Shown here in pieces: positions 4,150-55,415 of a stretch of DNA of 55,920 nt. A model generated the notes under the pieces. The model saw only the letters and a program-made list of their open reading frames with translations. It was not told where the DNA came from and ran no database searches. Both the position numbers and the translations under genes were made by a program. Every line of letters begins with the position of its first letter. The first letter of the stretch is position 1. Source of the stretch: a virus (Duplodnaviria > Caudoviricetes); the IMG/VR virus record IMGVR_UViG_3300003324_000282, positions 1 to 55,920 of that record; one strand, written 5' to 3'.

Positions 4150-4590
4150 TTGTTTACAAGTGAAGATCTCAAAGACGTAGTTGCTGATACAGATGATTGG
4201 GAGAATACTGCAAGAGCAAATCGAACTTTGCTTCGTGAGTTCAGAACTCTTCTTGGTCAACCGGAATTTTCCGATGTCGAAACTCTTGGCGAACTTAAGC
4301 AACGATTGGCAAATAGTGCTGCTGATAGTTATGGCGTGGTTCGAAGTAATCGTGATAAGCTAATTGCTTTGATTGATAGCGCTCGAGAAGATGGCTCGAA
4401 TTACGAACAATTCAACGACTCACTTTTCCACCTGTTTCGACTGACTGATATGCAGGTCATGTTCGTTCGTGGTATGCGAGAGTTCTTTGGCTCGCCTGTT
4501 GTCACTGAGCTCTCGAACATGATGGACAACGAACGAATTGCTGCTATGAACGAAATTCTTACGAGTGAAGATGACGAAGCAGGTACCTAA
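4150..4590 (+). CDS. Hypothetical helical protein
   Basis: TTG start after TAAGGAG; fills the gap between neighbours. Confidence 0.65.
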   Translation: MFTSEDLKDVVADTDDWENTARANRTLLREFRTLLGQPEFSDVETLGELKQRLANSAADSYGVVRSNRDKLIALIDSAREDGSNYEQFNDSLFHLFRLTDMQVMFVRGMREFFGSPVVTELSNMMDNERIAAMNEILTSEDDEAGT

Positions 4591-18488: not shown

Positions 18489-18872
18489 ATGGGAATGATT
18501 TCATTCAGATCTCGTGGCTCCACTCAACATATGGAGTCGTTTCTTCGACGAATGCAAACACTTGATATTCGCAGCATTGTTGAACCCTATGCACAGCAAG
18601 GTGTTGAAGCGCTGCGGGCTGCTACTCCAGTAGATTCGGGGTTGGCAGCTCAGTCATGGGGTTATGAAATTGAATCAAATCGAAGTGGTGTTACTATCGC
18701 ATGGACGAACAGCGATATCGAGAATGGTTTCCATGTTGCCGTCATGCTTCAGTACGGTTATGGGACAGGTACAGGCGGATATGTTCAAGGTCGTGATTAT
18801 ATTAATCCGGCCATCAAACCTATATTTGACCAGATAGCCGACGCAGTATGGAAGGTGGTGACCATGTCATGA
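18489..18872 (+). CDS. HK97 gp10-like neck/tail completion protein
   Basis: ATPVDSG...SW, LQYGYGT..GGYVQGRDYINPA pattern. Confidence 0.7.
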   Translation: MGMISFRSRGSTQHMESFLRRMQTLDIRSIVEPYAQQGVEALRAATPVDSGLAAQSWGYEIESNRSGVTIAWTNSDIENGFHVAVMLQYGYGTGTGGYVQGRDYINPAIKPIFDQIADAVWKVVTMS

Positions 18873-21800: not shown

Positions 21801-24445
21801 CATTGTTAGTTGTGTCTGCAGCATTGGTACCTCTTACTGCCGTACTCAAGACGCTTGGCAGTATGGGGTGGGAGAATATTCTCAAGGGACTGGTTGCATT
21901 AGCTGGTGCACTTACTGTTATCGGTGTAGCAGCCCTATTGCTTACCCCAGTTATTCCATCATTGTTCAGTTTGGCTGGGGCTATTACTCTACTAGGTGTT
22001 GGCTTTGCTGCAATCGGAGCCGCGGTATATTTGTTTGCCAGTGGTTTGCAGATTCTAGCTTTATCCGGTGCAGCAGCTGGATCAGCTATCAAGTTGCTGG
22101 TTGAAGATATTGTCAGTCTTCTACCCTATATGGCAAGGGCCGTTGGTACCACATTGGTTCAGCTGTCGCAGGCCATTGTCAAAGCCATGCCGAACTTGAT
22201 TGTGGCAACAATTGCACTTATTGATGGCATGTTGGTTGTTATCAACCGTGAAGGTCCGAAAATCATCAAGACTTTCACCAAGATGATTCTTGAATTGGTA
22301 GATGAGCTGGTTAAGGCTATTCCAAAGATAGCTGCAGCAGCGCTCAAGTTAATGATCGGTATTGTTGAGGCTGTGGATAGGAAAGCACCCACAGTTGTCG
22401 ACAAGATTACACAGATGATTGTCGATATTCTCCATGCAATGGCTCGTAACATGCCAAAGATTGTTGCGGCGGGTACAGAACTTATTGTCTCCTTCCTTGA
22501 AGGTATTGCTGCTCATATGGGCAGAATTGTCAAGGCAGGCGCCGATATTATCATCGCATGGATTCAAGGTATTTCCAAACAAGGTGTTCGTATTGCTAAT
22601 GCTGCCATGGATGCAGTCATTGACTTCGCTAATGGTTTGGCAGATGCAATCGAGAACCATATTGGTGAGTTCCGTGATGCTGGCATGCATCTTGCCTTTG
22701 CAATTGTCGATGGTATGACTTTGGGTCTTGCTTCTAAGGCTAAGTCGGTAGTTGACAAAGCTAAGGGAATTGCTAGTGGTGCATTAAATGGAGCTAAAAA
22801 GATTCTTGGTGTTTTCTCACCATCCAGAGCATTCCATGAGGTTGGTAAGCAATCAGCAATTGGTTTTGCACTGGGTATTGATGATTATGCCAAACTTTCT
22901 GAAGCTGCTTCCAAGAAAATGGCAAATGATGCACTTCAGGGAGCATCTAAAGAGTTTAAGGACGCAGTTAAGTATGTTCTTTTCGATCTGCCGAAGGGTT
23001 TGGTGGGTGGTAAGGACGAGGTCAAACAAACGATTAGTGAAACTCATGATGCCCTTCATGCTGCTGTGCAACAATCACATGAAGACATGCAACAACTTAA
23101 GCAAGATCTACATGAGTTGAAGCAGGGTCGTGACGATGATAGTAAGTCTGTTCGTGATGCTAATCAAGCGGTTGATGATGCAACTAAGAAGTATCATGAC
23201 CTAATAAATGCTAAAAAACAAGACTCAGATGCTATCAAACAAGCTAAGCAAGATATTAGTGATGCCAAAGACAAGTTGAAAGATGCTACACAAGCTCAGA
23301 AGGACCACGAACAAGCTATTAAGGACGATACTGCTGCATTAGAGCATGCTACTGCGGTACATCAACTGGCTAAGGACGCATTTGACCAGTTTAATGCCAA
23401 GATGGATACGCATAAGGCCAAGTTGATTGAACTGAGCAAAGAATACGATGAATACACAGCTAAGATCAATGCGGCTGAACAAGCTCTTCAACAGCAAATT
23501 TCTACTGAACAGAACTACAACGACCAAATTGTTCAGCAGTATAGTTCTTTGCCTGACATCTCAGCTGATACTAGTGTTGAGGATTATACCAACACACTGT
23601 CGGATCAGGTAGACAACACACAAAAGTTTATCGATGATCTGAACACACTTAGAGATCAGTTCAGTCTAAGTGATGACATGTACAAAGAACTCTTGGCTAA
23701 GGGACCAGCGATTCTACCATTTGTAGAACAGTTGTTGTCGGGTGGGCAAGCGGCTGTTGATACGTTGAATAACTTGACAGCTCAGCTGGATACCGAAGCC
23801 AAGACTCTTGGTGACACAGCATCCAAGTCACTTTACCAAGCTGGTGTCGATGCTGCACAGGGTCTGCTTGATGGTCTCAAGAAAGATCAAAATAGGATCG
23901 AAAAGCAGATGGAACACATTGCTGAGGTTATTGCCAAGGCAATCCGTAAGGCTTTGAAGATCAAGTCTCCGTCACAAGTTATGTTGGAAATTGGTCAATA
24001 CGTGGGCCAGGGTCTTGTTGATGGTATGCATTCTATGGAGGGCGACATCGACAAGCAAGGTAACAAGTTGGTGCAGAAGATGAATGCTTATATTAAGCAA
24101 CTTACCGACATGTTAGCTCAAGCAGAAGCCATTACGCCGACAATCACACCGGTATTGGATCTATCTAAGGTTCAGAAGGATGCTGCAAAGATCAGTAGTA
24201 TTGTAGCAAGCCCAATTACAGTATCAACAGCATATTCTAGTGCGAGTCAAGCTGCTGCTGGAGTTAATGCTAATCGAGCCGGAGTGGCTAGTGTAGATGT
24301 GAAACCAGTTGGTACTGTGGTTAGGGATGTTACCTTTATTCAAAACAATACATCTCCGAAGGCTTTGTCATCAGCTGAAATTTATCGAAACACCAATAAT
24401 CAAATTTCACAAGCGAAGGGAGCTCTGGCTAAGAATGTTGCTTAG
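18869..24445 (+). CDS. Tape measure protein
   Basis: ~1858 aa, Ala/Gly/Leu-rich helical; N-terminal tape-measure domain; LSWGQMAKGL repeats; two SPS motifs; ATGA overlap. Confidence 0.95.
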   Translation: MSSIDERVVEAKFDNSQFQRNIKSTQDSLDNFKKSLNMDGATRGISGLASAASTVANRFNVMRVAAYTAVATIAHQLTIAGENLVRSFTVGPLIDGLHEYETQLNSVQTILANTQWEHKNLDDVNKALNELNHYSDKTIYNFTEMARNIGTFTAAGVGLDKSVASIKGIANLAAVSGSNSQQASTAMYQLSQAISSGTVKLMDWNSVVNAGMGGKVFQDSLKETARVHGVKIDEMIKKEGSFRNTLQNGWLTSKILTETLSKFTGDLSRSQLKQMGYTEKQIDGIIKMGKTATDAATKVKTFTQLMGTLREAAGSGWAKTWQLIIGNFNQAKHVWTDVSNVLGGMIQSSAKARNNMLKDWAALGGRKALIDGISNAFHALMSVLDPIRDAFREIFPRTTGAQLAEMTKSFRDLMENFKIGADTADKLKRTFAGVFAVFDIGWQVIKAVAHFIGELIGAFAKSSGGQILEFTGSIGDMLVALDNAIKKGQGLTKFFDGLANMLKPIVATLGITRIALVDIFTGVATGVNQAAGIIPRFLHTLGNMIDKIREFFNGMFQGVDFDNVLNLLNAGLFTGVLLLIRKFINHLTRDKGPGLIERVINRITQPFEDLTATLQKMQAALQVATLIQLAIAVGVLTASVFTLSKINAKDLSKSLAAIGGMFAELMGALFLFNKVGGAKGLFTTASGLILLATAIRVLVSSVKALSELSWGQLAKGITGVTALIGGLILATRGIGSNAAGMIRAGAGLILLSTAIKVLVSAVSDMAELSWGQMAKGLTGVAAMLTALALFTKFGDTNAGGILQGAGLILLATGIKVLASAATDFAKLSWGQMAKGLTSISAILVAFSLFSKTVGNPVSLVASGAALVMISGSMVVLAKAMDLFSRLGWGQMTKGLVSMAGALAIITVALNAMPITSALSAAALVGISVALTVLAGALKVMGDMSWESIAKGLITLAGALVIIAQAMLEMEFALPGAAALLVVSAALVPLTAVLKTLGSMGWENILKGLVALAGALTVIGVAALLLTPVIPSLFSLAGAITLLGVGFAAIGAAVYLFASGLQILALSGAAAGSAIKLLVEDIVSLLPYMARAVGTTLVQLSQAIVKAMPNLIVATIALIDGMLVVINREGPKIIKTFTKMILELVDELVKAIPKIAAAALKLMIGIVEAVDRKAPTVVDKITQMIVDILHAMARNMPKIVAAGTELIVSFLEGIAAHMGRIVKAGADIIIAWIQGISKQGVRIANAAMDAVIDFANGLADAIENHIGEFRDAGMHLAFAIVDGMTLGLASKAKSVVDKAKGIASGALNGAKKILGVFSPSRAFHEVGKQSAIGFALGIDDYAKLSEAASKKMANDALQGASKEFKDAVKYVLFDLPKGLVGGKDEVKQTISETHDALHAAVQQSHEDMQQLKQDLHELKQGRDDDSKSVRDANQAVDDATKKYHDLINAKKQDSDAIKQAKQDISDAKDKLKDATQAQKDHEQAIKDDTAALEHATAVHQLAKDAFDQFNAKMDTHKAKLIELSKEYDEYTAKINAAEQALQQQISTEQNYNDQIVQQYSSLPDISADTSVEDYTNTLSDQVDNTQKFIDDLNTLRDQFSLSDDMYKELLAKGPAILPFVEQLLSGGQAAVDTLNNLTAQLDTEAKTLGDTASKSLYQAGVDAAQGLLDGLKKDQNRIEKQMEHIAEVIAKAIRKALKIKSPSQVMLEIGQYVGQGLVDGMHSMEGDIDKQGNKLVQKMNAYIKQLTDMLAQAEAITPTITPVLDLSKVQKDAAKISSIVASPITVSTAYSSASQAAAGVNANRAGVASVDVKPVGTVVRDVTFIQNNTSPKALSSAEIYRNTNNQISQAKGALAKNVA

Positions 24446-27833: not shown

Positions 27834-27935
27834 ATGAAGCATCATATTCTCAAGCGTAAATACTTGCTGTCGTATATTGCTGTAATCGTGACGGTAGAGC
27901 TAGGTATTCAGATTGGACAATCTCTTGCCTCCTAG
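27834..27935 (+). CDS. 33-aa single-TM protein (not in ORF track)
   Basis: AAGGAG at 27823-27828; MKHHILKRKYLLSYIAVIVTVELGIQIGQSLAS. Confidence 0.55.
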   Translation: MKHHILKRKYLLSYIAVIVTVELGIQIGQSLAS

Positions 27936-28515
27936 AAAGAAAGAGAATTCGGCTGTCCCAGCAGACGTCGTAGAAGTTGACCCAAGCTTGATACCTATTC
28001 CAGCTGCTATTGTCGAAGATAAGCGAAACACATTAGGCAAAAGACTAGGCGCGTTTGCCATTATTATCCTTCTGTTGTTCTTTGCTATTGGTGGTTATAT
28101 TTCATCAGCACAAAACAATAGCCTGTTACATAGAGCGGCAAAAGATCGAACGGCGCTTATCGATGGTGAACATAAGCTGGTCAAGTCGAATCAAAGACTA
28201 GTCAAGTCGAACAAAGCACAGTCTGATCTAATTCGTAAGCTTCAGCAAGCAATTCGAGAGCAAAACAAAATTCTTAGAGAGGCGGGGTTAGAGACTGTAC
28301 CAGTTCCTAGTAAAAGTCCGTCTACGAGCTCCTCAGGGCCGTCTAGCAACCCTTCTCATAACCCCCAACCTAAGCCAAAACCTAGTCATTCGCCACATCC
28401 TCACCCACATCCGACACATTCACCCCCTCCACCCGATGCAATTCAAAAGGTGCGAGACCGAGTCTGTAATCTAACAGGGATCTGCGTCAATATATCGCAG
28501 TTCTTTAGATTTTAA
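27913..28515 (+). CDS. Membrane-anchored coiled-coil, Pro/Ser/His-rich protein
   Basis: One TM, coiled coil, long Pro-rich linker, terminal Cys pair; adjacent to holin; start uncertain. Confidence 0.65.
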   Translation: MDNLLPPRKKENSAVPADVVEVDPSLIPIPAAIVEDKRNTLGKRLGAFAIIILLLFFAIGGYISSAQNNSLLHRAAKDRTALIDGEHKLVKSNQRLVKSNKAQSDLIRKLQQAIREQNKILREAGLETVPVPSKSPSTSSSGPSSNPSHNPQPKPKPSHSPHPHPHPTHSPPPPDAIQKVRDRVCNLTGICVNISQFFRF

Positions 28516-30433: not shown

Positions 30434-30476
30434 AAAGGCTAAGTACCCTTACAAGGTACTTGGTCTTTGTGTTTTT
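30434..30476 (+). terminator. Intrinsic terminator
   Basis: AAAGGCTAAGTACC-cttacaa-GGTACTTGGTCTTT-GTGTTTTT. Confidence 0.75.
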
Positions 30477-30560: not shown

Positions 30561-30633
30561 GCCCTACTAGCCCAATGGCAGAGGCAGAAGACTTAAAATC
30601 TTCCAAGTGTGGGTTCGAGTCCCACGTAGGGCA
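30561..30633 (+). tRNA. tRNA-Leu (anticodon TAA), short variable loop, CCA not encoded
   Basis: Acceptor GCCCTAC/GTAGGGC, D loop with TGG, anticodon arm GAAGA-CTTAAAA-TCTTC, T arm GTGGG-TTCGAGT-CCCAC, discriminator A. Confidence 0.9.
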
Positions 30634-30636
30634 CAA

Positions 30637-32744: not shown

Positions 32745-32792
32745 AAGAGCAAGAGCTTTGTAGCAATACAAGGTTCTTGTTCTTTGCCTTTT
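32745..32792 (+). terminator. Intrinsic terminator (GNRA loop)
   Basis: AAGAGCAAGAGCTTTGTA-gcaa-TACAAGGTTCTTGTTCTT. Confidence 0.75.
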
Positions 32793-36904: not shown

Positions 36905-39900
36905 GTGGACTTTTATCAGATCGGCACTAAAGAAACCAAGGGCGGAGTCATTGAGATATTCCCAGACTTCACTGTTGGCCGATCTAAAGACCTCATGGTG
37001 CGTGGACGTTCTTTCTATGCAATCTGGGATGAAGAAAAAGGTCTATGGTCTACGGACGAATACGATGTACAACGTTTAGTGGACAAAGAGCTTTCTGAGT
37101 TTGCAGACAAGCTGAAGAAAGACGGACATATTTGCACTGTAAAATACCTTCGTTCGTTCAGTAGTAACACTTGGAGTCAGTTTCAGAATTTTTTGAGCAA
37201 AGTTGGAGATAATGCTCATACGCTCGACCAGAATCTGACTTTCAGTAATACCGAAGTTTCGAAGTCTGATTATATAAGTAAACGTCTACCATACCCTCTC
37301 GCCCCAGGTTCTACTCCTGCTTGGGACGAGCTGATAGGTACATTATACTCTGTTGAGGAAAGAGCAAAAATTGAATGGGCAATTGGATCAGTCGTTTCAG
37401 GAGATTCTAAGAAAATCCAAAAGTTTCTCGTCTTATACGGACCTGCTGGAACAGGCAAGTCAACAGTTCTCAATATTGTCCAAAAACTGTTCGAAGGCTA
37501 CACAACTACTTTTGAAGCTAAGGCCCTTGCTTCCTCAAATGGAACCTTCTCGACAGAAGCATTCAAAAACAATCCACTAGTTGCAATTCAACATGATGGT
37601 GATTTGTCAAAGATCGAGGATAACACAAAACTGAACTCGATTGTTTCTCATGAAGAGATGACAATGAATGAGAAGTATAAACCGAGTTATACTGCTCGCG
37701 TTAACTCCTTCTTGTTCATGGGAACGAATCAACCAGTAAAGATATCTGATGCCAAGTCGGGTATCATTCGTCGTTTAATTGATGTTCATCCTACTGGCAT
37801 CAAGATTCCGATCAATCACTATCATACGTTAATGAGCAAGATTGACTTTGAGTTAGGTGCTATTGCGCATCGTTGTCTTGAAGTCTATCAACAAATGGGA
37901 AAGAACTATTACAACGGATATCGTCCACTCGAGATGATGTTACAAACAGATGTATTCTTTAACTTCATCGAGGCTAACTACGATATTTTCAAATCACAAA
38001 ATGGTACTTCCTTGAAGCAGGCATACGCGCTATACAAAGATTTCTGTAATGATACGGGAATTGAACGACAACTTCCACAATACAAGGTACGAGAAGAACT
38101 TCGTAACTACTTTGAAGACTTCAAAGACCGAGCTGTAGTTGATGGTGAGACAATTCGAAGTTATTACTATGGTTTCACCGCACATCCATTTAAAACGCCT
38201 TCTAAGGATGCTAACACGTTCTCGTTGGTTATTGATGAAACTACATCTATATTTGAGAAGTTATATGAAGATTGTGCAGCGCAGTATGCCAAAGAAGATG
38301 GAACTCCTCAAAAGAGGTGGATTACAGTAAAGACCAAGCTTAGTGATATTGATACCAGTCAACTTCACTACGTAAAGGTTCCTGATGATCATATTGTGAT
38401 TGACTTCGATCTTAAGGACGAGAATGGTAACAAAAGCTTGGAACGAAATTTGGAAGCAGCCAGCAGCTGGCCCGCTACCTACGCCGAAATCAGCAAATCT
38501 GGATCCGGCGTGCATCTACATTACCGTTATGACGGAGACGTTAACACCCTCTCTAGAAGCTTTGCTGATGGAGTTGAAGTTAAAGTCTTCAATGGTGATA
38601 GTTCTTTGCGCCGTCGATTCACAAAATGCAACAGTGTATCGATTAGCACAATAAGTAGTGGGCTCCCTACGAAGGAGAAGAAGGTGCTTCAATCCCAAAC
38701 TATCAAGAGCGAGAAAGGTCTTCGGGAACTTATCGCTCGAAATCTACGCAAGGAGATTCATCCAGGAACGAAGCCCTCTGTCGACTTCATCAAACATATT
38801 CTGGATCAAGCATATACAGATGGTTTGACCTATGATGTCTCAGACCTTCGACCAAAGCTAATTACATTCGCAAACAACAGTACCAATAGGCCATTAGAAT
38901 GTCTTAAGATCGTACAGAGCATGAAGTTCAAATCTGAGAAAGAAACAGAATCTGTTGACACTAGAAGTAATACTACATCAACAGCGGCTATGGATACATA
39001 TTCTGCTCCAGAAGATGATGTGATTGCTCCGTTCGATACTGAAGTATTTCCAAACCTATTTATTGTGTGCTGGAAGTATCGAGGGTCTGACCAAGTAGTA
39101 AAGATGATTAACCCATCACCTACAGAAATTGAAAAACTTGTCGAGCTCAAGTTAATTGGGTATAACAATCGACGGTTTGATAATCATATTCTGTATGCAC
39201 GAATTATGGGTTATAACAATCAGCAATTGTTCGAACTCTCACAAAAATTAATCAATGGTAACACCAGTGCATATTTTGGCGAAGCATATAATCTTTCTTA
39301 TGCAGATGCCTATGATTTTATCACAGACAAAAAGAGTTTGAAGAAGTTTCAAATTGAACTAGGTTTACCTCATGTTGAACTGGATTTGCCATGGGATCAG
39401 CCAGTTCCTGATGAACTAATTGACAAAGTTGTTGAATATTGTGTCAACGATGTGCTCAGTCTTGAATCGGTAATTGAAGAGCGAGAAGCAGATTTAGTTG
39501 CTCGACAAATTCTAGCTGAGTTATCTGGTCTGTCTATCAACGACACCACACAACGACACACAGCAGCAATTATATTTGGTAAGGATAACAAAAAACCACA
39601 GAAAGATTTCGTTTATACCCATTTAAGCAAGGAGTTTCCAGGATATGAGTATGATCGTGGCGTTAGTACGTATCGTGACGAAGTTGTCGGTGAAGGCGGC
39701 TATGTTTATGCTGAGCCTGGTATGTACAACGACGTTGCTCTCCTGGATGTGGCGTCTATGCACCCGACGTCGATCGAAGAGCTAAATCTGTTCGGACCAT
39801 ATACTCCGAATTTTACCGCTCTTAAGAACGCTCGTTTGGCTATCAAATATGGTGACTATTCATCAGCTCGAGAAATGATGGATGGTAAGCTTGCGCCATA

Positions 39901-40675
39901 TTTGAAGAATGAGAAAAACTCAGCGGCATTGGCCTATGCTTTGAAGATTGCAATCAACACAGTGTACGGTCTTACCGCGGCCAAGTTTGACAACCCGTTC
40001 AGAGACAATCGCAACATTGATAATATTGTAGCAAAGCGTGGTGCTCTGTTCATGATCGATTTAAAACATGCAGTACAGGAACAAGGTTATACTGTCGCTC
40101 ATATCAAAACGGACTCTATCAAGATTCCGGAAGCTACACAAGAGATCATCGATTTCGTTGTCAATTTTGGTACTAAATATGGCTATGAGTTCGAACACGA
40201 GGCTACGTATGACAAATTTTGTCTCGTGAACGATGCAGTTTATATTGCACACAAGCCCGAGAGTAACATTTGGGTTGCAGTAGGAGCTCAGTTCCAGCAT
40301 CCGTATGTGTACAAAACATTGTTCAGTGGCGAAGAAATTGAATTTGACGACTTGTGTGAGACAAAACAAGTTATGCAGGGCGTTATGTATCTAGAATATC
40401 CGGACAATGTTCGAGAGCATGTCGGTAGGATTGGAAGATTTGTTCCAGTGCTTGAAGGTGGTGGCACGTTGTTGCGGGTTAAGGATGACAAAGCCTACGC
40501 AGTTACAGGCACCAAGAACTACGAGTGGGTTGAAGCCGAGATGGCTCGAAATAACCAAGATACAATCAAGATTAACATGTCATATTTCGAGAAGCTAGCT
40601 AATGATGCTCGAGATGCTATCGATTATTATGGATCATTCCATGATTTTGTGCTACTAGATGGGGTCAATAGATAA
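36905..40675 (+). CDS. Fused SF3/D5-like helicase + AEP primase + family-B-like DNA polymerase with proofreading exonuclease
   Basis: GPAGTGKS Walker A; VIDFD and SKSGSGVHLHY primase motifs; FDTE, GYN...FD, YC.ND exonuclease motifs; DVASMHP, K...N..YG, KTDS polymerase motifs. Confidence 0.9.
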   Translation: MDFYQIGTKETKGGVIEIFPDFTVGRSKDLMVRGRSFYAIWDEEKGLWSTDEYDVQRLVDKELSEFADKLKKDGHICTVKYLRSFSSNTWSQFQNFLSKVGDNAHTLDQNLTFSNTEVSKSDYISKRLPYPLAPGSTPAWDELIGTLYSVEERAKIEWAIGSVVSGDSKKIQKFLVLYGPAGTGKSTVLNIVQKLFEGYTTTFEAKALASSNGTFSTEAFKNNPLVAIQHDGDLSKIEDNTKLNSIVSHEEMTMNEKYKPSYTARVNSFLFMGTNQPVKISDAKSGIIRRLIDVHPTGIKIPINHYHTLMSKIDFELGAIAHRCLEVYQQMGKNYYNGYRPLEMMLQTDVFFNFIEANYDIFKSQNGTSLKQAYALYKDFCNDTGIERQLPQYKVREELRNYFEDFKDRAVVDGETIRSYYYGFTAHPFKTPSKDANTFSLVIDETTSIFEKLYEDCAAQYAKEDGTPQKRWITVKTKLSDIDTSQLHYVKVPDDHIVIDFDLKDENGNKSLERNLEAASSWPATYAEISKSGSGVHLHYRYDGDVNTLSRSFADGVEVKVFNGDSSLRRRFTKCNSVSISTISSGLPTKEKKVLQSQTIKSEKGLRELIARNLRKEIHPGTKPSVDFIKHILDQAYTDGLTYDVSDLRPKLITFANNSTNRPLECLKIVQSMKFKSEKETESVDTRSNTTSTAAMDTYSAPEDDVIAPFDTEVFPNLFIVCWKYRGSDQVVKMINPSPTEIEKLVELKLIGYNNRRFDNHILYARIMGYNNQQLFELSQKLINGNTSAYFGEAYNLSYADAYDFITDKKSLKKFQIELGLPHVELDLPWDQPVPDELIDKVVEYCVNDVLSLESVIEEREADLVARQILAELSGLSINDTTQRHTAAIIFGKDNKKPQKDFVYTHLSKEFPGYEYDRGVSTYRDEVVGEGGYVYAEPGMYNDVALLDVASMHPTSIEELNLFGPYTPNFTALKNARLAIKYGDYSSAREMMDGKLAPYLKNEKNSAALAYALKIAINTVYGLTAAKFDNPFRDNRNIDNIVAKRGALFMIDLKHAVQEQGYTVAHIKTDSIKIPEATQEIIDFVVNFGTKYGYEFEHEATYDKFCLVNDAVYIAHKPESNIWVAVGAQFQHPYVYKTLFSGEEIEFDDLCETKQVMQGVMYLEYPDNVREHVGRIGRFVPVLEGGGTLLRVKDDKAYAVTGTKNYEWVEAEMARNNQDTIKINMSYFEKLANDARDAIDYYGSFHDFVLLDGVNR

Positions 40676-43581: not shown

Positions 43582-43586
43582 TCTCG

Positions 43587-43620
43587 AAAGCCAGAGGCCC
43601 TTACAAGGCTTCTGGTTTTT
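43587..43620 (+). terminator. Intrinsic terminator
   Basis: AAAGCCAGAGGCC-cttacaa-GGCTTCTGGTTTT-T. Confidence 0.8.
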
Positions 43621-43648
43621 AATTTTTGGTATCTAGAAAGGATCTGAA

Positions 43649-46476: not shown

Positions 46477-46623
46477 ATGACTGTGGTACCAGGTGAAGCC
46501 TGTCCAGAGTGTAAGAACGTGAATGTTGTTCATGAGGAGGACTTCAGTTGGTGTCGCAACTGTGGTTGGACCTCAGACGGGGGCGAAGTTCCTACTCCGG
46601 GACTTAAGAACAAAGGACGTTAA
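46477..46623 (+). CDS. Zinc-ribbon mini-protein (not in ORF track)
   Basis: GGAG RBS; CPEC..CRNCGW. Confidence 0.65.
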   Translation: MTVVPGEACPECKNVNVVHEEDFSWCRNCGWTSDGGEVPTPGLKNKGR

Positions 46624-46796
46624 TGCCACGACAAGAGACGATGCGAGTTCCACCAACCACTAAAGAAAGTATGGACATTTTGGTTCAGGAGACTTGTAAA
46701 AAAACAAAGATGACAGATCAAATGGTACGAGAGCTGTTTAATACTGGCTGGAAGTATCATGAAGCAAATGGTCAAATCATGTGGATCAAAGCTTAG
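46623..46796 (+). CDS. Hypothetical protein (not in ORF track)
   Basis: AAAGGA RBS; TAATG coupling. Confidence 0.55.
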   Translation: MPRQETMRVPPTTKESMDILVQETCKKTKMTDQMVRELFNTGWKYHEANGQIMWIKA

Positions 46797-46804
46797 GGGA
46801 CTTA

Positions 46805-47536
46805 ATGACTGAAATCACTTTCAAGACAACGCCCGAGGTCACGCTTGTTGATTATCATGGTAGTGATGCGTCAATCGTGGCCGCAGCTCGAGTATCGGTC
46901 GCCGGCGGTGAAGAAGCTCAGTACCTGGAGCATTTGAATGTTGCTAAGACCAAGGAATACCGCGGTCTAATCAACTATCTGATGACTCATCGTCACGGTA
47001 CACCGTTCGAGCACAATAGCATAACTTTCCGAGTTGCTGCTCCGATCTTCGTATTTCGTGAGTGGCATCGTCACCGGGTTCCGTGGTCTTACAACGAAGA
47101 GTCAGGACGTTACAAGCAGCTTGACCCAGTCTTCCATATTCCAGGTCCAGCGCGTCCTCTCATCAATGTTGGGACAAGTGCTCGACCGCAGATGGTTCCT
47201 GGCTCTTTCGAGCAGTGGGAAAAGCTCAGGGCAGAGATGGAAGAGCACTACATTCTTGCTTATCGTTCCTATGAACGGTCTCTTGCTGCAGGCATTACTA
47301 AAGAAGTTGCTCGCGAAGTTCTTCCAGTAGGAATCTTCTCCACAATGTATGCCACTGCAAACCTCCGGGGAATTCTGCACTTCTTGAGTTTGCGTATTCA
47401 TGACCCAGAGGCCAAGTTTGTTTCATATCCGCAGTACGAGATTCAACAGGCTGCACAGCAAGTCGAGAATATTGTTAAGAAATTGTTTCCCATCGCATAT
47501 TCCTGTTACATCGATAACGGACGGGTTGCTCCATGA
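46805..47536 (+). CDS. thyX: Flavin-dependent thymidylate synthase
   Basis: AARVS, HGTPFEH, REWHRHR..SYNEESGRY signature, E.AR..LP. Confidence 0.95.
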   Translation: MTEITFKTTPEVTLVDYHGSDASIVAAARVSVAGGEEAQYLEHLNVAKTKEYRGLINYLMTHRHGTPFEHNSITFRVAAPIFVFREWHRHRVPWSYNEESGRYKQLDPVFHIPGPARPLINVGTSARPQMVPGSFEQWEKLRAEMEEHYILAYRSYERSLAAGITKEVAREVLPVGIFSTMYATANLRGILHFLSLRIHDPEAKFVSYPQYEIQQAAQQVENIVKKLFPIAYSCYIDNGRVAP

Positions 47537-47763
47537 ACGATGCGGTCAATCATCCATCTCACTATGGTGGCGAAGACAATCCATACGAGGCAATCAAAGT
47601 TATTGAAGCATGGGATCTTGATTTCTGTCTTGGTAACACAGTCAAGTACATTTCTCGAGCTGGTAAGAAAGATCGCACAAAAGAGCTAGAAGATCTGAAG
47701 AAAGCGCGATGGTATCTCGATCGAGAAATTCAACGATTGGAATCTAATGGATCAACAGTATAG
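47533..47763 (+). CDS. DUF3310 (T7 gp1.7/SaV-like) protein
   Basis: D.VNHPSHY..E.I..I..F.LGN..KY..RAG.K..EDL.KA.WYL. Confidence 0.9.
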   Translation: MNDAVNHPSHYGGEDNPYEAIKVIEAWDLDFCLGNTVKYISRAGKKDRTKELEDLKKARWYLDREIQRLESNGSTV

Positions 47764-47866
47764 TGAATGTACTAACTGTGGTAAGACCGATGCTGAATGC
47801 TGTGCTGAGTTCGCTACTTATGGTAAAAATTGCTGTATGAAATGTAATCATATTCCTCTTCCATAA
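47747..47866 (+). CDS. 39-aa Cys-rich mini-protein (not in ORF track)
   Basis: CTNC..CC..CC..C.H (7 Cys). Confidence 0.5.
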   Translation: MDQQYSECTNCGKTDAECCAEFATYGKNCCMKCNHIPLP

Positions 47867-47875
47867 GGACTAGAT

Positions 47876-48214
47876 ATGTGGGATAGAAAATGCCCAAAGT
47901 GTAAATCAGACAACTGGTCTGTAGTCGGCAGTAGTAACTGTATCTGCGACAACTGTAACTACCACTGGATTGTAACCGCAGCCAACCATTTGTTCCCTGA
48001 GCGTGTCAAGAATCCTCGAGAAGATGTGCTGATGACCAGTGGTGAAGTGGCTAAAATATTCCGCGTTGATCCTAAGACCGTGTCGCGATGGGCCAAACAA
48101 GGTCGGTTGCAATCAGTGAAAACACCAGGCGGACATCGCAGATTTTTGCGGACCGAAGTAACCAAATTGCTGAACACCTCGTTTCAGCCTAACAGCAAGG
48201 ATAGCAATGATTAA
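47876..48214 (+). CDS. bldC: Zinc-ribbon fused to BldC-like MerR-type winged HTH
   Basis: N-terminal CPKC..C.CDNC; C-terminal LMTSGEVAKIFRVDPKTVSRWAKQGRLQSVKTPGGHRRF closely matches Streptomyces BldC as I recall it. Confidence 0.85.
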   Translation: MWDRKCPKCKSDNWSVVGSSNCICDNCNYHWIVTAANHLFPERVKNPREDVLMTSGEVAKIFRVDPKTVSRWAKQGRLQSVKTPGGHRRFLRTEVTKLLNTSFQPNSKDSND

Positions 48215-48440
48215 ACTTGGTGAGATCGAGTTCGACAGCTATGATACTGGTCCGGGAAAACTGGAGCTTATTTCTGAGGGAGAGTTTCTCTGGATCAGAA
48301 TTCATAAGCTTGGTCCTGAACAAAAAGAAGAATCTACTCGTCCAATGGAGAAGCGAGACCCAGAACGATGGAAGACATTTCAGCTTAGCAACCGCACACT
48401 AAAGTTCTTCAGCCAGTGGAATGACAAGTATATCCGATGA
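48207..48440 (+). CDS. Hypothetical protein
   Basis: RBS AAGGA; overlap with upstream gene. Confidence 0.65.
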   Translation: MIKLGEIEFDSYDTGPGKLELISEGEFLWIRIHKLGPEQKEESTRPMEKRDPERWKTFQLSNRTLKFFSQWNDKYIR

Positions 48441-48685
48441 GAGACTACGAGCGGCTTCGAGAACGAGACTTAAGAGATATGGAGGACATGGCTTATAAAA
48501 ACCGTAATCCTCTCCACCACAGTACAGGCATCCCACTCTGTGAACATCCACGTGATTGTAAACTGTGTACAAATGCAGCTAGACTAGCGATTCAGCATTA
48601 TCGCCCAATTCTAGAACGACGTGTTGTCGAACATATCATGTCTGAGTATGACGTTCGCTGCGAATTTCCACATGGAGGAGATTAG
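48437..48685 (+). CDS. Cys/His hypothetical protein
   Basis: ATGA overlap; CEH..DC..C. Confidence 0.6.
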   Translation: MRDYERLRERDLRDMEDMAYKNRNPLHHSTGIPLCEHPRDCKLCTNAARLAIQHYRPILERRVVEHIMSEYDVRCEFPHGGD

Positions 48686-48931
48686 ATGGGACTAAAGGAA
48701 AACCAACAGCTAGCTGAACAATACCCAATTCTCGAGTACTTCAAGTACAACCATCTTCATCCGGCATTGAAAGAGGTGTCAGCACCATTTTGCACCTTGG
48801 CTTGGAAACTGGCACGTAAGCTACCCAGGAATGCAGAGACATCGGTGTCGTTACGAAAGTTACTGGAGTCTAAGGACGCTGCGGTAAGAGCTGCTATTGA
48901 TATCCAGCTGGAAACAGAAAGAATGGTTTGA
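48686..48931 (+). CDS. Acb2/Tad1-like helical-hairpin protein (candidate signal sponge)
   Basis: RBS GGAGGAG; F.Y.HL...L..VS.PF..LA..L...LP...E....LRKLLE.KDAAVRA. Confidence 0.55.
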   Translation: MGLKENQQLAEQYPILEYFKYNHLHPALKEVSAPFCTLAWKLARKLPRNAETSVSLRKLLESKDAAVRAAIDIQLETERMV

Positions 48932-48932
48932 T

Positions 48933-49148
48933 GTGAAACCTAGATGGTATCATCGATATTCGGTAGTAGCAATTTTAAAACTACCAAATGGTCAAGATAA
49001 GTTCTTCGAGTACCAGCCACGATATTTCGTTCTACGATCAAATGCTGTTTTGTTTCAAGCGATGTTGTACAGCGATTTTGGTCCGGAACAAGTACGAGTA
49101 CGACTTGAGAAACTTCGTGGTCGACATTATATGACAGAAATGGGATAA
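48933..49148 (+). CDS. Hypothetical protein
   Basis: Fills gap; start uncertain. Confidence 0.55.
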   Translation: MKPRWYHRYSVVAILKLPNGQDKFFEYQPRYFVLRSNAVLFQAMLYSDFGPEQVRVRLEKLRGRHYMTEMG

Positions 49149-49151
49149 CAA

Positions 49152-50345
49152 ATGTTAGAATTAGCCCCCCATCAGGAGAAAGTCGTGCCTCAACTACGCA
49201 ACGGCTCCATCCTCTGGGGCGGTGTAGGGACGGGTAAAAGTCGTGTTGCAGTTGCTTATTACTTAACTAAGGAGGCGCCTAGAGATGTCTACGTCATTAC
49301 CACCGCAAAGAAACGGGACTCACTCGACTGGGACAAAGAGTTTGTGGCAGCCAATGTCGGTACAAGATCAGATTCGACATTTCATGGAACGCTCACTGTT
49401 GACAGCTGGAATAATATCTCCAAGTACAACAACATTTACGGAGCATTCTTCATCTTTGATGAGCAACGACTTGTCGGCAGCGGCGCATGGGTTAAGTCAT
49501 TCCTCAAGATTGCGAAACGAAATCATTGGATATTGCTCAGTGCCACCCCTGGTGATACTTGGCTCGACTACGTTCCTGTGTTTATTGCTAATGGATTCTA
49601 TCAGAACCGTACTGAGTTCAAACGTGAGCACGTCATTTACAACCCGTATTCGAAATTTCCGAAGGTCGACCGATATGTCGGAACCGGACGTCTTCTAAAA
49701 CAGCGAGATCAGATCCTAGTAGAGATGCCCTACCTTCGACACACGGTAAGAAAGACACACTATATAGATGCTAAGTACGACGAAGATGCGCTTCGCAAGG
49801 TCACACTTGGTAGATGGAATGTCTTTGAGGAGCAGCCTCTGAGAAGCCCGGCTGAGCTTGTATCCGTGGCTAGGAGAGTAGTTAACAGCGATCCTTCTCG
49901 GCTATCTGCTATCCGTGTATTAATGAAGGACCATCCCCGTTTGATTATATTCTATAACTTTGATTACGAATTAGATATTTTGCGGGGGCTGGCGGCGGAC
50001 GTGCCGCTAGCTGAATGGAATGGGCATAAGCACGAACCGATCCCAAATGAACCAAAATGGGTATATTTAGTCCAGTATGTCGCTGGTGCAGAATCTTGGA
50101 ATTGTACGGACACAGACACGACAATTTTCTACAGTTTGACTTACTCTTATCGAAACTGGCACCAAGCTCACGGACGAATTGACCGGTTGAATACACCCTT
50201 TTCGATCTTGTATTATTACGTTATTCGCTCAAAATCCAAAATTGACATGGCAATCTTGGCAAGCTTAAAGGCAAAGAAAAGCTTTAATGAAAGGGACATT
50301 TACGCTCAACTTGGTATAGATACCGGACATTTTGACGAATTCTAA
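49152..50345 (+). CDS. Superfamily 2 DNA helicase
   Basis: [29 protein letters not shown] motifs. Confidence 0.9.
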
Positions 50346-52229: not shown

Positions 52230-52728
52230 GTATCACTGGATCAACTATAGTGAGGAAAAATTAGAGCGTGTCTTTGTTGCACATGAAGCTGCTCGTCGAG
52301 GCAGTGATTTACATAATCTTGCACATGAAGCAATTCGACTTGGTGTTAAGCTTGCAGGTAGAAATACACTAGGCTTGTATGTTAATGATGCTATTGGTTA
52401 TCGTATGACCTGTGAACAAGTTTTATATTTTTCACCAAATGCGTTTGGAACCGCGGATACTATTTCTTTCCGTCGTAACAAGCTTAGGATTCATGATTTG
52501 AAAACTGGGGTCTATCCATGTTCTGAACATCAGCTTGAGGTTTATGCTGCTCTGTTCTGTCTTGAATACGGATTCAAACCAGCTAACATTGAGATTGAAC
52601 TTCGTATTTACCAGTCTGACGAAGCTCGTATTTATGAGGCTGACCCAGACATTATTACACACATCATGGATAGAATTATAACGTTTGACAAGAAGATCAA
52701 CGAACTTAGATTGGAGGCGATGTCATGA
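52171..52728 (+). CDS. Cas4/RecB-like PD-(D/E)XK exonuclease
   Basis: HAFLSPS..W, G..LH, FGTAD, IHDLKTG, QL.VYA. Confidence 0.8.
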   Translation: MNFNKHLDLVDQHAFLSPSKYHWINYSEEKLERVFVAHEAARRGSDLHNLAHEAIRLGVKLAGRNTLGLYVNDAIGYRMTCEQVLYFSPNAFGTADTISFRRNKLRIHDLKTGVYPCSEHQLEVYAALFCLEYGFKPANIEIELRIYQSDEARIYEADPDIITHIMDRIITFDKKINELRLEAMS

Positions 52729-55415
52729 TTCTAGAAGGCGAAGACGCACTCCAGCACTATGGTATTCTCCGCAAGTCAGGTAGGTATCCTTGGGGTTCTG
52801 GTGAAGACCCGGTTCAAAGAAGTAACACGTTTTTGGGTATGGTTGCCGACCTACGTGAAAAAGGACTCACCCCAAAAGAGATTGCTGTTGGGTTAGGTTT
52901 AGAGAACACTACCAATCTTCGTAATGTTACAACTATTGCTCGGGCTGAGAAGAAAGCCGCCGATGTCAGTATAGCTATTCGGTTGAAAGAAAAAGGCATG
53001 TCCAATATTGCCATTGGTAAACAAATGGGCGTTGGTGAATCTCAGGTTCGTGCATTGTTGAAAGCACATGAAGACGATAACTTGCATATTCTCAAAGCCA
53101 CTACAGAAGTTATCAAAAAACGTTGTGATGAAGTTAAGTACCTTGACGTTGGTACAGGTCAACAATATCATGTACCTACTGGTGTCAGTGAAAACAAATT
53201 CAAAGCTGCAATTGCTGCGCTTGAAGATCAAGGCTACAAAGTTCATTATCTTAAAGTTCCTCAATTGGGAACCACACATGAAACAACACATAAAGTCCTA
53301 GCACCACCAGGTGTACCATATTCTGAAGTCAGTAAGAATCGTGATAACATTCGTGGTTTTACTGAATGGACCAATGATGGTGGTAGGTCTTGGTTGGGCA
53401 TTGATCCACCAATTTCTATTAGTTCAAAGCGTCTTGGTATTCGATACAAAGAAGAAGGCGGCGCAGAAGCAGATGGTGTCATCTATGTTCGACCCGGTGT
53501 AAGAGACATTTCACTAGGTCGATCCCGTTATGCTCAGGTGCGTATTCAAATTGATGATACGCATTACATCAAGGGCATGGCAATGTACAAGGATGATCTT
53601 CCATCTGGAACCGACCTTCTTTTCAATACGAATAAGTCGAACACTGGAAATAAATTAGATGCTTTGAAGCCACTGAAGAATGATCCTGACAACCCATTTG
53701 GATCTACTGTTCGTCAGCTTAAAGATGAAAATAAAAAAGTATACTCGGCAATGAATATTGTTTATGAAGAAGGTACCTGGGAGCGTTGGTCTAATAAGTT
53801 GTCTTCACAGTTCCTATCCAAGCAAACTCCGGATCTGGTTAAGAAGCGGCTTGACCTAACGTTTGAAAAGAAGAAGTCTGAGCTAGATGAAATCATGAAG
53901 TTGACAAACCCCGCAGTTAGAAAGCATCTTCTATTCAAGTTTGCTGAAGAGGCCGATTCTTCTGCGGTTCATCTCAAGGCGGCTGGGTTCAAACGTTCTG
54001 CTGCACATGTTATCTTACCTATTACTTCTATGAAAGAAACAGAAATCTATGCACCTAACTTCAAGAATGGTGAACGAGTAGTTCTTATTCGTCATCCGCA
54101 TGCAGGTGTATTTGAGATTCCAGAACTAACTGTTAATAACCGTCATCCAGAAGCTAGAAAACTTCTTGGTCCTACCAAGGATCGTCCTGAGCCGGTTCGA
54201 GATGCAGTAGGCATTCATCCCAAGGTTGCACAACATCTTTCTGGTGCAGACTTTGATGGTGATACGGTTCTGGTAATTCCAAACAATGATAGAAGAATTA
54301 AGAACTCTCCACCATTAGCTGGGTTAAAAGACTTTGATCCGCAGATATACAAGATTCCTGATGACAGTCCAATACCCAGAATTAAACCAAAGACAAAGCA
54401 ACTACAAATGGGTGATGTTTCAAATTTGATCACCGATATGACTATCAAAGGAGCACCCCCATCCGAGCTTGCTCGAGCAGTTCGGCATTCTATGGTAGTT
54501 ATCGATGCTGAGAAACATCATCTAAACTATAAGCAATCAGCCATTGATAATGGTATTTCTCAACTTAAGAAGCGGTATCAAACAGATGCTGCTGGTAACC
54601 CTTCTTCTCGAGCTGGTGCTTCAACTTTAATTTCTAGAGCTAAGAGTCGTAAAGAAGTACCAGAGAGAAAACAAGGGTTTAAGATTAATCCTGAAACTGG
54701 TGCCAAAGAGTATCGTTATACTGGTGCAACTAAGATAGATGCAAAAGGTAGGGTTGTCCCTCGTACAACCAGGTCTACTAAGATGGCTGAAACTAATGAT
54801 GCCCGTACTCTGTTGTCTAAGGGTGGTGGTACAAAGGTAGAGCACATCTATGCAGACTATGCTAATAGACTTAAGACTATGGCTAATGATACGAGGAAAG
54901 AGTACATCAATACAAAGCCTACGCCATATGATAGTTCAGCAAGAACTGCCTACTCAAAAGAGGTGGCCTCTCTTAACGCAAAGCTCCACCTGGCTTTAAG
55001 AAACAGCCCCCTTGAAAGACAAGCCCAGGTCCTAGGAAACCGGGTCTATAAACAAAAGCTCAATGACCAACCAGACATGGATGAGTCTGAGAAGAAGAAA
55101 GTAAAAGCTCAGGCTCTAATGGAAGCTAGAACTAGGGTTGGTGCACATAAAGAACAGATCAAGATTGATGAAAATGAGTGGGCTGCTATTCAAGCAGGTG
55201 CTTTCCATAACAACACTCTCACTAAGATTCTAGACAATGCAGATCTTGATACAGTGAGGAAGCTAGCTACACCTAAGGAAACAGTACTAATGACTAACTC
55301 CAAGACAGCTAGAGCACAGTCTATGCTTAAGGGTGGTGCCACACAGGCTGAGGTTGCTGAGGCTCTTGGTGTATCACTTAGTACTCTTAAGCGTAGTCTA
55401 GGTGGTGAAGGGTAA
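52725..55415 (+). CDS. Single-chain two-barrel DNA-dependent RNA polymerase (YonO-like) with terminal HTH domains
   Basis: DG.I..QVRI..KGM first-barrel motifs; LIRHPH and SGADFDGDTV (54249-54263 encode DFDGD); HTHs GMSNIAIGKQMGVGESQVR and GATQAEVAEALGVSLSTLKR. Confidence 0.8.
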   Translation: MILEGEDALQHYGILRKSGRYPWGSGEDPVQRSNTFLGMVADLREKGLTPKEIAVGLGLENTTNLRNVTTIARAEKKAADVSIAIRLKEKGMSNIAIGKQMGVGESQVRALLKAHEDDNLHILKATTEVIKKRCDEVKYLDVGTGQQYHVPTGVSENKFKAAIAALEDQGYKVHYLKVPQLGTTHETTHKVLAPPGVPYSEVSKNRDNIRGFTEWTNDGGRSWLGIDPPISISSKRLGIRYKEEGGAEADGVIYVRPGVRDISLGRSRYAQVRIQIDDTHYIKGMAMYKDDLPSGTDLLFNTNKSNTGNKLDALKPLKNDPDNPFGSTVRQLKDENKKVYSAMNIVYEEGTWERWSNKLSSQFLSKQTPDLVKKRLDLTFEKKKSELDEIMKLTNPAVRKHLLFKFAEEADSSAVHLKAAGFKRSAAHVILPITSMKETEIYAPNFKNGERVVLIRHPHAGVFEIPELTVNNRHPEARKLLGPTKDRPEPVRDAVGIHPKVAQHLSGADFDGDTVLVIPNNDRRIKNSPPLAGLKDFDPQIYKIPDDSPIPRIKPKTKQLQMGDVSNLITDMTIKGAPPSELARAVRHSMVVIDAEKHHLNYKQSAIDNGISQLKKRYQTDAAGNPSSRAGASTLISRAKSRKEVPERKQGFKINPETGAKEYRYTGATKIDAKGRVVPRTTRSTKMAETNDARTLLSKGGGTKVEHIYADYANRLKTMANDTRKEYINTKPTPYDSSARTAYSKEVASLNAKLHLALRNSPLERQAQVLGNRVYKQKLNDQPDMDESEKKKVKAQALMEARTRVGAHKEQIKIDENEWAAIQAGAFHNNTLTKILDNADLDTVRKLATPKETVLMTNSKTARAQSMLKGGATQAEVAEALGVSLSTLKRSLGGEG

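Follow-up and report, generated by a model that had tools for sequence, protein, structure and literature searches.

We describe a phage gene whose 112-amino-acid (aa) product joins a BldC-family winged helix-turn-helix (HTH) domain to a probable N-terminal zinc ribbon. The gene lies at 47876..48214 on the + strand of IMG/VR record IMGVR_UViG_3300003324_000282, an uncultivated tailed phage whose 55,920 nucleotides (nt) form the window analysed here; the record is linear and, by CheckV, 94% complete. BldC, a protein of 68 residues that is monomeric in solution, is a well-studied switch keeping Streptomyces in vegetative growth. The phage domain belongs to the BldC family, the gene is accessory in its phage lineage, and by analogy with BldC we consider it likely that the protein binds DNA in the BldC manner. 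The whole statement that we tentatively put forward, of an accessory BldC-type DNA binder with a zinc ribbon aimed at the BldC-controlled promoters of the host, is plausible while falling short of probable. A phage-borne BldC-family protein offers a concrete and cheaply testable candidate for a phage touching the vegetative-growth switch.

The C-terminal domain is a member of the BldC family

The original prediction had called this protein a BldC homologue on the strength of a C-terminal consensus, and that consensus is present letter for letter (L52.T54..E57VA..F62RVDPKTV.R71WAK.G76.L78.S80..T83.GGHRR89). The homology is borne out by curated score, predicted fold and individual residues. Residues 52-99 align with positions 2-49 of the 49 in the NCBIfam model HTH_BldC (NF033787) and score 91.1 bits, where the curated cut-off is 77; a six-frame search of the genome with the same model returned the same gene at 92.5 bits. 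Cellular or metagenomic BldC proteins reach similar values, namely P0058, which NCBI names BldC family (91.7 bits), and P0004 (91.5 bits). Pfam HTH_17 (47.2 bits) and MerR (36.1 bits) also exceed their cut-offs, while the generic excisionase model TIGR01764 reaches 35.6 bits, 55 bits below the BldC model. As a control, we scored five HTH or Xis proteins of cultured actinophages on HTH_BldC (Schnabeltier gp41, Brujita gp35, Noelani gp24, prophiGD53-3 Xis and Bowser gp41), and all five fell under the cut-off at 52.0-64.0 bits; nor was it exceeded in any of 14 control genomes. The best sequence matches in the PDB were chains of the BldC-DNA complexes 6ama and 6amk, with expect values (E) of 8.8e-16 and 2.9e-15.

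An AlphaFold2 model built from 66 aligned sequences predicts the winged HTH (residues 51-102; 48026..48181, + strand) at a predicted local distance difference test (pLDDT) of 90-96, with a strand at 52-54, helices at 55-62 and 66-75, a second strand at 88-91 and a last helix at 92-102. The modelled fold is MerR-like without a coiled-coil dimerisation or effector domain, and only a polar tail of ten residues follows at low confidence (residues 103-112 and stop; 48182..48214, + strand). In a Foldseek search of the PDB the top seven hits were all BldC chains, superposing at a root-mean-square deviation of 0.6-1.6 Å with template modelling (TM) scores by target of 0.87-0.94. RacA (E 2.5e-3) and classical MerR proteins came after BldC, and Pukovnik Xis stood at rank 30 (E 0.069).

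The residues that matter in BldC are largely kept. Schumacher et al. 2018 name 20 BldC residues for DNA contact or head-tail packing (PMC5859096); with BldC residue n taken as phage residue n+41, all 20 named letters fit the structure chain, and alignment to that chain gives 16 identical residues and four that differ. Lys26, Arg30, His46, Arg47 and Arg48, which read bases and groove, and the kinking Trp31 are all identical (K67, R71, H87, R88, R89 and W72), as are Leu11, Glu16, Phe21, Arg22, Val23, Thr42 and Gly44 of the head-tail set (L52, E57, F62, R63, V64, T83 and G85). In the head-tail set Ile40 and Leu43 are replaced by V81 and P84; the remaining differences are Ala15 to G56 and Thr29 to S70. 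All of these variants are common in the family, G56, S70, V81 and P84 being carried by 30, 52, 43 and 27 of 65 aligned homologues, respectively. The same report gives Arg30 as the YpG contact, describes the hydrophobic interface as Phe21, Val23 and Trp31 against Leu11, Ile40, Thr42, Leu43 and Gly44, and holds that a non-polar position 43 separates BldC-like from classical MerR proteins (PMC5859096). The equivalent P84 is non-polar, and both the hydrophobic interface and the Arg22-Glu16 pair are present. Moreover, every invariant or nearly invariant family position is retained in the phage protein.

A maximum-likelihood tree of 51 rows by 69 columns is poorly resolved, which is to be expected of such a short domain. 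One branch is nevertheless well supported (100/96), and it unites the phage protein with the metagenomic matches and with each of the four cellular proteins named BldC. Four of the five cultured-phage HTH proteins fall on its other side; the fifth, Noelani gp24, sits on an 8-unit branch and its placement is unreliable. The nearest rows in the tree are metagenomic (P0003, P0004, P0008 and P0018; at most 68% identity over the tree columns), and the nearest relatives overall are metagenomic proteins at 68-78% identity. Of ten close matches looked up, eight have no protein name; the others are P0058, from a freshwater actinobacterial metagenome-assembled genome, and P0055, annotated only in general terms as 'excisionase family DNA binding protein'. 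A place among generic excisionase HTHs had been named beforehand as the outcome that would speak against a BldC homologue, and neither the tree nor the HTH_BldC controls give it. The protein is not a generic excisionase: the controls fail the cut-off, the tree groups it with BldC, and no integrase is present in a genome that is 94% complete. By profile score, predicted fold and individual residues, the domain is a true member of the BldC family.

The N-terminal module is a probable zinc ribbon

A CxxC..CxxC domain had been noted ahead of the HTH, and it is there as a four-cysteine module, C6-P-K-C9 followed by C22-I-C24-D-N-C27. It occupies residues 1-35 (47876..47980, + strand; CPKC-x12-CICDNC), with the CPKC and CDNC knuckles 14 residues apart, and is joined to the HTH by a linker of residues 36-50 (47981..48025, + strand) whose pLDDT block means are 52 and 56, with residues 36-41 below 50. 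The pattern CxxC-x(8-25)-CxxC occurs in 3 of the 89 open reading frames (ORFs) of the window, all within 46477-48214, and in none of 300 residue shuffles of the proteome, in which Cys makes up 0.73% of residues. Therefore, the motif is not a product of chance.

The finer label of zinc ribbon, also part of the original prediction, stands less firmly than the cysteines themselves. AlphaFold2 predicts three short strands in the N-terminus (14-16, 21-24 and 30-32) at a pLDDT of about 70. The look-alikes returned by the ESM Atlas are zinc ribbons (YjdM, L37ae, NrdR and IS1595 types) at TM scores of 0.60-0.68, which fall under that search's own bar for naming and so serve as leads only. Matches to zinc-ribbon families in Pfam and NCBIfam all lay far under their cut-offs. 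We regard the module as a probable, only moderately supported zinc ribbon.

The only three CxxC...CxxC modules that the phage has are clustered in 1.8 kb of the + strand: a 48-aa ORF (46477-46623), a 39-aa ORF (47747-47866) and the N-terminus of the fusion (47876-47980). Comparison of the 48-aa ORF with the fusion N-terminus gave an E of 0.035 over 10 residues and no evidence of kinship.

Rarity of the fusion

The combination of an N-terminal zinc ribbon with a BldC domain appears to be unique among the proteins searched. An exhaustive search of 1.84 billion representatives gave 6,996 matches at an E of at most 0.001, of which 150 were listed, and among these 150 the best stretches of two reach the N-terminus. 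Both were rejected as homologues of the fusion: P0246 is a Streptomyces-like BldC with a seemingly mis-called upstream extension, and P0147 is a four-repeat HTH protein. Among non-self matches of similar length, none of the 119 listed covers more than 61% of the query. When residues 1-48 were used alone, a word-based search at similar lengths matched only the query, and nothing was matched among shorter proteins. A CxxC motif N-terminal to the HTH in the same frame was found in none of the best 80 of 588 metagenome stretches, and one N-terminal to the HTH in none of the best 80 of 182 IMG/VR stretches. These tallies cover the best-scoring part of each search, and a diverged fusion may therefore have been missed. 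A scan of a genome collection with the protein, which needs exact 8-residue words, gave only five acidobacterial loci at 36-42% identity and indicates neither donor nor host.

Other arrangements of the same domain were met in these searches. Many metagenomic proteins, P0002, P0121, P0122 and P0130 among them, carry 2 to 7 BldC-like HTH copies in one chain, with about six residues linking the copies in P0002. Such chains resemble a head-to-tail BldC filament whose protomers have become covalently joined. Two IMG/VR proteins (L186 and L206) and P0205 are BldC-family proteins with a C-terminal Cys/His-rich extension (...CRH...CERC in one), which from their sequences may be a second, independent fusion of BldC with a metal site. 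The BldC domain is thus modular in nature, occurring with a zinc ribbon, with C-terminal Cys/His extensions and in chains of 2-7 tandem copies.

Distribution in the phage lineage and among other viruses

The BldC-like gene is accessory in this phage lineage. None of 80 helicase-linked loci of relatives matches the protein at E <1, and no BldC-family match was found in the whole records of ten relatives (nine from IMG/VR, six of them at least 90% complete, and ClubPenguin). Deposited phages gave 218 matching records, typically at 36-47% identity and at best under 60%, and none of them is a Streptomyces phage. The Streptomyces-like P0246, used as query, matched 223 deposited-phage records, again with no Streptomyces phage among them; one unverified faecal contig reached 73%.

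In IMG/VR, a pattern-limited search found at least 182 other stretches encoding BldC-like proteins, and phage-borne BldC is therefore not unique to this phage. The best 80 of the 182 are all on contigs with 53-75% G+C. Three other IMG/VR ORFs were scored on HTH_BldC and all three pass the cut-off (80.0-89.4 bits). Two of them, from L002 and L006, lie among primase and DNA-polymerase genes, and the third, from L004, has a tail-sheath gene nearby. Five other BldC-carrying IMG/VR records, two of them complete, contain no tyrosine or serine recombinase, and no HK97-capsid Pfam match was found in these five; that they are phages is judged from PHROG matches to polymerase, primase and tail sheath and from the IMG/VR classification. 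Some of the 182 stretches may be host DNA or prophage edges; on two of them (L211 and L246), for instance, the ORF has the appearance of a chromosomal bldC gene lengthened by a spurious extension. On L007, a BldC-like ORF at 3533-3757 lacks the GGHRR wing (...TRTPGAQVMEMAEG) and looks truncated or rearranged compared with L002 and L006. We found no description of a phage-encoded BldC-family gene in the literature, in a survey that did not cover the BldC-like list in Supplementary Fig. 11 of PMC5859096. Phage-borne BldC thus appears to be recurrent in metagenomic viruses and previously undescribed: contigs of uncultivated viruses often carry genes of this family (at least 182 stretches), which are absent from deposited cultured phages.

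The phage, its relatives and its likely host

The phage had been taken for a lytic phage with a Streptomyces host. The first part agrees with the record, in which no tyrosine or serine recombinase (PF00589, PF00239) was matched. Long ORFs all lie on the + strand, and G+C is 41-46% throughout and 43.2% overall. No near-identical DNA to 46500-49500 exists in 50,697 deposited phage records, and relatives were sought by protein. The terminase large subunit, minor tail protein and 896-aa polymerase-like protein were searched against all deposited phages. The terminase (7171-8916) is 89.0% identical to that of ClubPenguin, and the top 25 matches listed are all Streptomyces phages; the minor tail protein is 58.3% identical to that of Bing over its first 70%, and the best cultured match of the polymerase-like protein is HotFries at 59.1%. 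The helicase, compared with ClubPenguin alone, is 66.6% identical, and gene order is conserved from the helicase to the right end. Arthrobacter and Gordonia phages follow close behind the Streptomyces phages in the terminase and polymerase-like searches.

The Streptomyces half of that assumption is only partly upheld. The best cultured relatives do infect Streptomyces; against this stand identities of 55-89%, a G+C of 43%, the uncultivated state of the phage and the nearness of the Arthrobacter and Gordonia phages. Going by its proteins, the phage is a low-G+C member of a large actinophage group, and its host is most likely an actinobacterium, perhaps Streptomyces. Across 80 IMG/VR loci with a related helicase (59-69% identity), G+C runs from 43 to 60% with a median of 50%. 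A terminase 89% identical to that of a 59% G+C phage in a 43% window also shows a wide compositional range within one phage group. The cultured relative Scarif has 59.1% G+C and is predicted virulent (PMC11536984). No WhiB gene was found in the window.

The sole tRNA of the window is Leu(UAA) (30561-30634, + strand), which had been paired with the BldC-like gene as a second bld-like function. The tRNA is real; a developmental role for it fits less well. TTA codons number 176 in 52 of 81 phage genes, or 12.4% of Leu codons, with none in the BldC-like gene, and among 44 loci of relatives scanned, three low-G+C ones carry tRNA-Leu(UAA), two (L070 and L072, G+C 0.43) together with Lys(UUU) and Met and one (L081) with Lys(UUU). 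Codon usage and tRNA sets fit codon compensation by an AT-rich phage in a GC-richer host, a simpler explanation than a developmental function. If the host is a high-G+C actinomycete, the tRNA would be needed to translate the phage's own AT-rich genes; conversely, a codon-compensating tRNA makes it slightly more likely that the G+C of the host exceeds that of the phage.

Comparison with known systems

The closest characterised system is BldC of Streptomyces coelicolor and S. venezuelae (6AMA, 6AMK), which shares the MerR-like winged HTH without coiled coil or effector domain. The likeness extends to the NF033787 score, the superposition at 0.6-1.6 Å and the 16 of 20 identical residues. However, the phage protein has 112 aa rather than 68 and is not a small single-domain protein, as it carries the extra four-cysteine module and linker. 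It also differs in its identity of about 55% over 56 residues, in the change of Leu43 to Pro and in being encoded by a phage rather than a chromosome. The HTH-only BldC genes of L002, L004 and L006 are likewise phage-borne and over the cut-off, and those of L002 and L006 have replication-type neighbourhoods; in contrast, their products have 78-111 aa and no Cys module, their contigs have a G+C of 0.53-0.75 against 0.43, and they belong to unrelated phage lineages.

Gp36 of mycobacteriophage D29 and the MerR-like HTH or Xis proteins of actinophages are likewise small phage proteins with a MerR-like winged HTH. According to a 2025 report, the likeness of Gp36 to BldC is confined to structure; the protein is a weak oligomer that binds direct repeats, preferably GC-rich ones, and has an effect on the expression of phage genes (PMC12266134). 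Gp36 was not itself among the five actinophage proteins scored on HTH_BldC. The actinophage HTH/Xis proteins differ from the present protein in that identity is at most 59% and the BFVD matches listed include no zinc ribbon. MqsA antitoxin and IS1 InsA have the same order of modules, a four-cysteine zinc module and then an HTH, but their HTH is of the XRE or transposase type instead, so that to judge by sequence the resemblance is one of architecture and not of kinship. The tandem proteins P0002, P0121 and P0122, the strongest matches to the query in an all-against-all search, also hold a BldC domain within a larger protein; they differ in having 2-7 HTH copies per chain and no zinc ribbon.

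Proposed function and alternatives

We propose that a lytic-type siphovirus of Actinomycetota took up a BldC-family gene as an accessory. In its product the probable zinc ribbon at the N-terminus is tied by a flexible linker to the winged HTH of BldC type at the C-terminus. The HTH would read a narrowed AT-rich minor groove through its His-Arg-Arg wing and a C-G pair four base pairs (bp) off through Arg71, and protomers would assemble cooperatively, head to tail, into multimers along direct repeats of 9 bp (AATT-N4-C type), with the DNA bent and shortened, or coated, as by BldC. The most likely targets would be the host's own BldC-controlled promoters, where the protein would act as a mimic or competitor of host BldC and, in a sporulating host, favour vegetative growth. 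The zinc ribbon would give a second contact, to a protein partner or nucleic acid, that host BldC lacks, and could modulate filament growth or bring in a partner. Since the N-terminal extension joins the domain at Leu52, which corresponds to Leu11 in the head-tail interface of BldC, the ribbon would sit on a tether of about 15 residues beside the docking protomer.

We lean to a host target for several reasons. The domain scores like cellular BldC, while resident phage HTH regulators have drifted to 52-64 bits, and the protein has diverged from cellular BldC no further than the cellular proteins have from one another. Moreover, the gene is dispensable in the phage lineage, and BldC-type repeat arrays occur at chance level in the phage. 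In addition, BldC delays entry into development (PMC6428758), and in Streptomyces development limits the spread of phage, with infection repressing development early (PMC10117723). Two copies of AATTN4C with at most one mismatch occur 7 times in the window against 7.9 expected, which is no enrichment and allows no operator to be proposed; three copies occur exactly 0 times against 0.13 expected, and 51 times against 48.8 with at most two mismatches. Such chance-level counts bear neither way on cooperative head-to-tail binding itself, and neither does a homodimer prediction with two copies bear on self-association (score 0.00 against a mark of 0.42).

A number of observations weigh against a host target. 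The protein is no more than about 55% identical to Streptomyces BldC (31 of 56 aligned positions, hand count). The DNA-reading residues are nearly invariant across the family and therefore give no indication of which genome is read. The developmental side of the proposal rests on kinship with Streptomyces phages only; cultured relatives have a G+C of about 59% (59.3% for the ClubPenguin stretch) against 43% for this phage, and 7 of the best 80 metagenome contigs with BldC homologues have a G+C of 0.40-0.45, so that a lower-G+C, non-sporulating actinobacterial host is possible. An effect on development or on the BldC regulon, as the original prediction had it, is purely conjectural and drawn by analogy. 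In a 57% A+T genome many degenerate AT-rich sites exist, and binding of phage DNA would be hard to avoid. In two other IMG/VR lineages the BldC-family gene has primase and DNA-polymerase genes around it, which hints at a replication-linked, phage-directed role, and D29 Gp36, the one studied phage analogue, regulates phage genes (PMC12266134). G+C at third codon positions is 0.52 in the BldC-like gene against a genome mean of 0.385 (rank 7 of 81), a value reached by 4.4% of 112-codon windows, and is weak evidence of recent gene capture.

A bolder version of the host-directed proposal, in which actinomycete phages repeatedly capture host BldC to reprogramme the host and have here armed the domain with a zinc ribbon, seems to us unlikely. 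The fusion would then join or cap host BldC filaments at developmental promoters or on AT-rich phage DNA, and the host would be locked in a phage-permissive vegetative state, or a BldC-type coat stripped from the invading genome. If true, this would be the first virus-encoded mimic of a bacterial developmental master regulator countering development-based containment of infection.

The protein may instead be a regulator or architectural protein acting on direct repeats in the phage's own DNA, with its BldC ancestry incidental. This is possible if somewhat doubtful, and nearly as good as a host target. Its role could lie in the timing of transcription (early, middle or late), in the organisation of the replication origin or in coating an AT-rich genome in which degenerate sites must be many. 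Actinophages commonly encode small HTH proteins of MerR-like or Xis-like type (the 218 matched records and the BFVD matches), and Gp36 itself binds direct repeats of its own genome and affects phage gene expression (PMC12266134). The BldC-like gene stands within a replication and nucleotide-metabolism block, and the L002 and L006 genes are flanked by genes for primase and DNA polymerase. Some recurrent phage use is shown by the 182 or more IMG/VR stretches, together with the five other records checked that lack an integrase. A promoter-like repeat with an AT-rich spacer, present in seven copies in the window, could be the target; however, only one of the seven overlaps a double BldC-type site at no more than one mismatch, and BldC-type arrays are not enriched in the window. 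Moreover, a core regulator should be conserved, and the gene is missing from all ten whole records of relatives and all 80 linked loci.

Three further explanations are far less likely. The shared order of zinc ribbon and HTH would suit an MqsA- or IS1 InsA-like module, an antitoxin-like or anti-defence regulator whose partner is perhaps the downstream 77-aa ORF, which overlaps the gene by 8 nt. The matches to MqsA (TIGR03830; residues 5-75) and to the N-terminus of the IS1 transposase (residues 6-81) are weak, though, their 19 and 23.2 bits being far under the cut-offs of 61.8 and 100, the HTH is of MerR/BldC and not XRE type, and the neighbours match nothing in Pfam or PHROG, with no toxin evident, which makes this very improbable. 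Slightly less likely still is decay of a captured gene into a non-functional one, with the Cys module a meaningless extension: the protein is a singleton with no full-length homologue in the searches made, but the frame is intact behind a good ribosome-binding site, the invariant and near-invariant family positions are kept, the HTH is confidently modelled and the Cys motif never arises in shuffles. Least likely of all is an excisionase (recombination directionality factor) or a small-terminase-like DNA-recognition subunit. The TIGR01764 score of 35.6 bits, a match to phrog_66 (excisionase), one to phrog_57 (small terminase) on residues 47-82 and the structural kinship of BldC and Xis noted in PMC5859096 are outweighed by the lack of a recombinase in the 94%-complete genome, the 55-bit lead of the BldC model, the rank of Pukovnik Xis in the fold search and a distance of 39 kb from the terminase large subunit.

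Gene neighbourhood and other features of the window

The coding sequence is present as earlier described and starts at the first ATG past an upstream stop. A Shine-Dalgarno-like AAGGA, read from the sequence, lies 6 nt ahead of this ATG (47865..47869, + strand). Upstream in the same gene string is the 39-aa Cys-rich ORF (CTNC...CC...CCMKC; 47747..47866, + strand), and the ATG of the 77-aa ORF (48207..48440, + strand) lies within the 8-nt overlap at the 3' end, making translational coupling of the two genes possible; neither ORF has a Pfam or PHROG match. The co-directional string runs from a primase/polymerase (36905-40675) through many small ORFs to the ThyX thymidylate synthase (46781-47536), a DUF3310 protein (47533-47763), the 39-aa ORF and the BldC-like gene, which is followed by four small ORFs without family matches and a DNA helicase (49152-50345). 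The BldC-like gene is probably made together with these nucleotide-metabolism and replication genes (ThyX, DUF3310 and helicase). Tandem-repeat and promoter/terminator scans around it gave nothing exceeding shuffles.

The promoter-like repeat is a conserved intergenic motif of 32-46 nt, composed of TCGCA, an AT-rich stretch, TAC..TATAAT and GAGACCCC, and each of its seven copies (28916, 29523, 29801, 30116, 30637, 32499 and 43346, + strand) lies just upstream of a small + strand ORF. From its make-up it looks like a phage promoter family that may be read by a host sigma factor or by the phage polymerase-like protein. Three repeats of a hairpin with a T-run (CCCTTACAAGG...TTTT) at 30446-30475, 32763-32792 and 43598-43627 (+ strand) are likely terminators bounding small early units; a terminator scan also picked up a hairpin copy at 43586-43620.

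The 896-aa protein (52725-55415, + strand) scores 1264 bits on phrog_4291, a family labelled RNA-dependent RNA polymerase. In 250 deposited phages, whose hosts include Arthrobacter, Gordonia, Streptomyces and Lactococcus, a conserved counterpart occupies the right end of the genome, and in most of the records listed its annotation goes no further than helix-turn-helix DNA-binding protein. A putative lysis-region ORF (27913-28515) had no match in deposited phages or Pfam. In-frame tandem repeats of 84 nt lie at 4743-5059 (+ strand) inside ORF 4590-5486, and in-frame repeats of about 177-180 nt lie at 20921-21552 (+ strand) inside a 1865-aa ORF (18848-24445), presumably that of the tape measure protein to judge solely by where it lies and how long it is.

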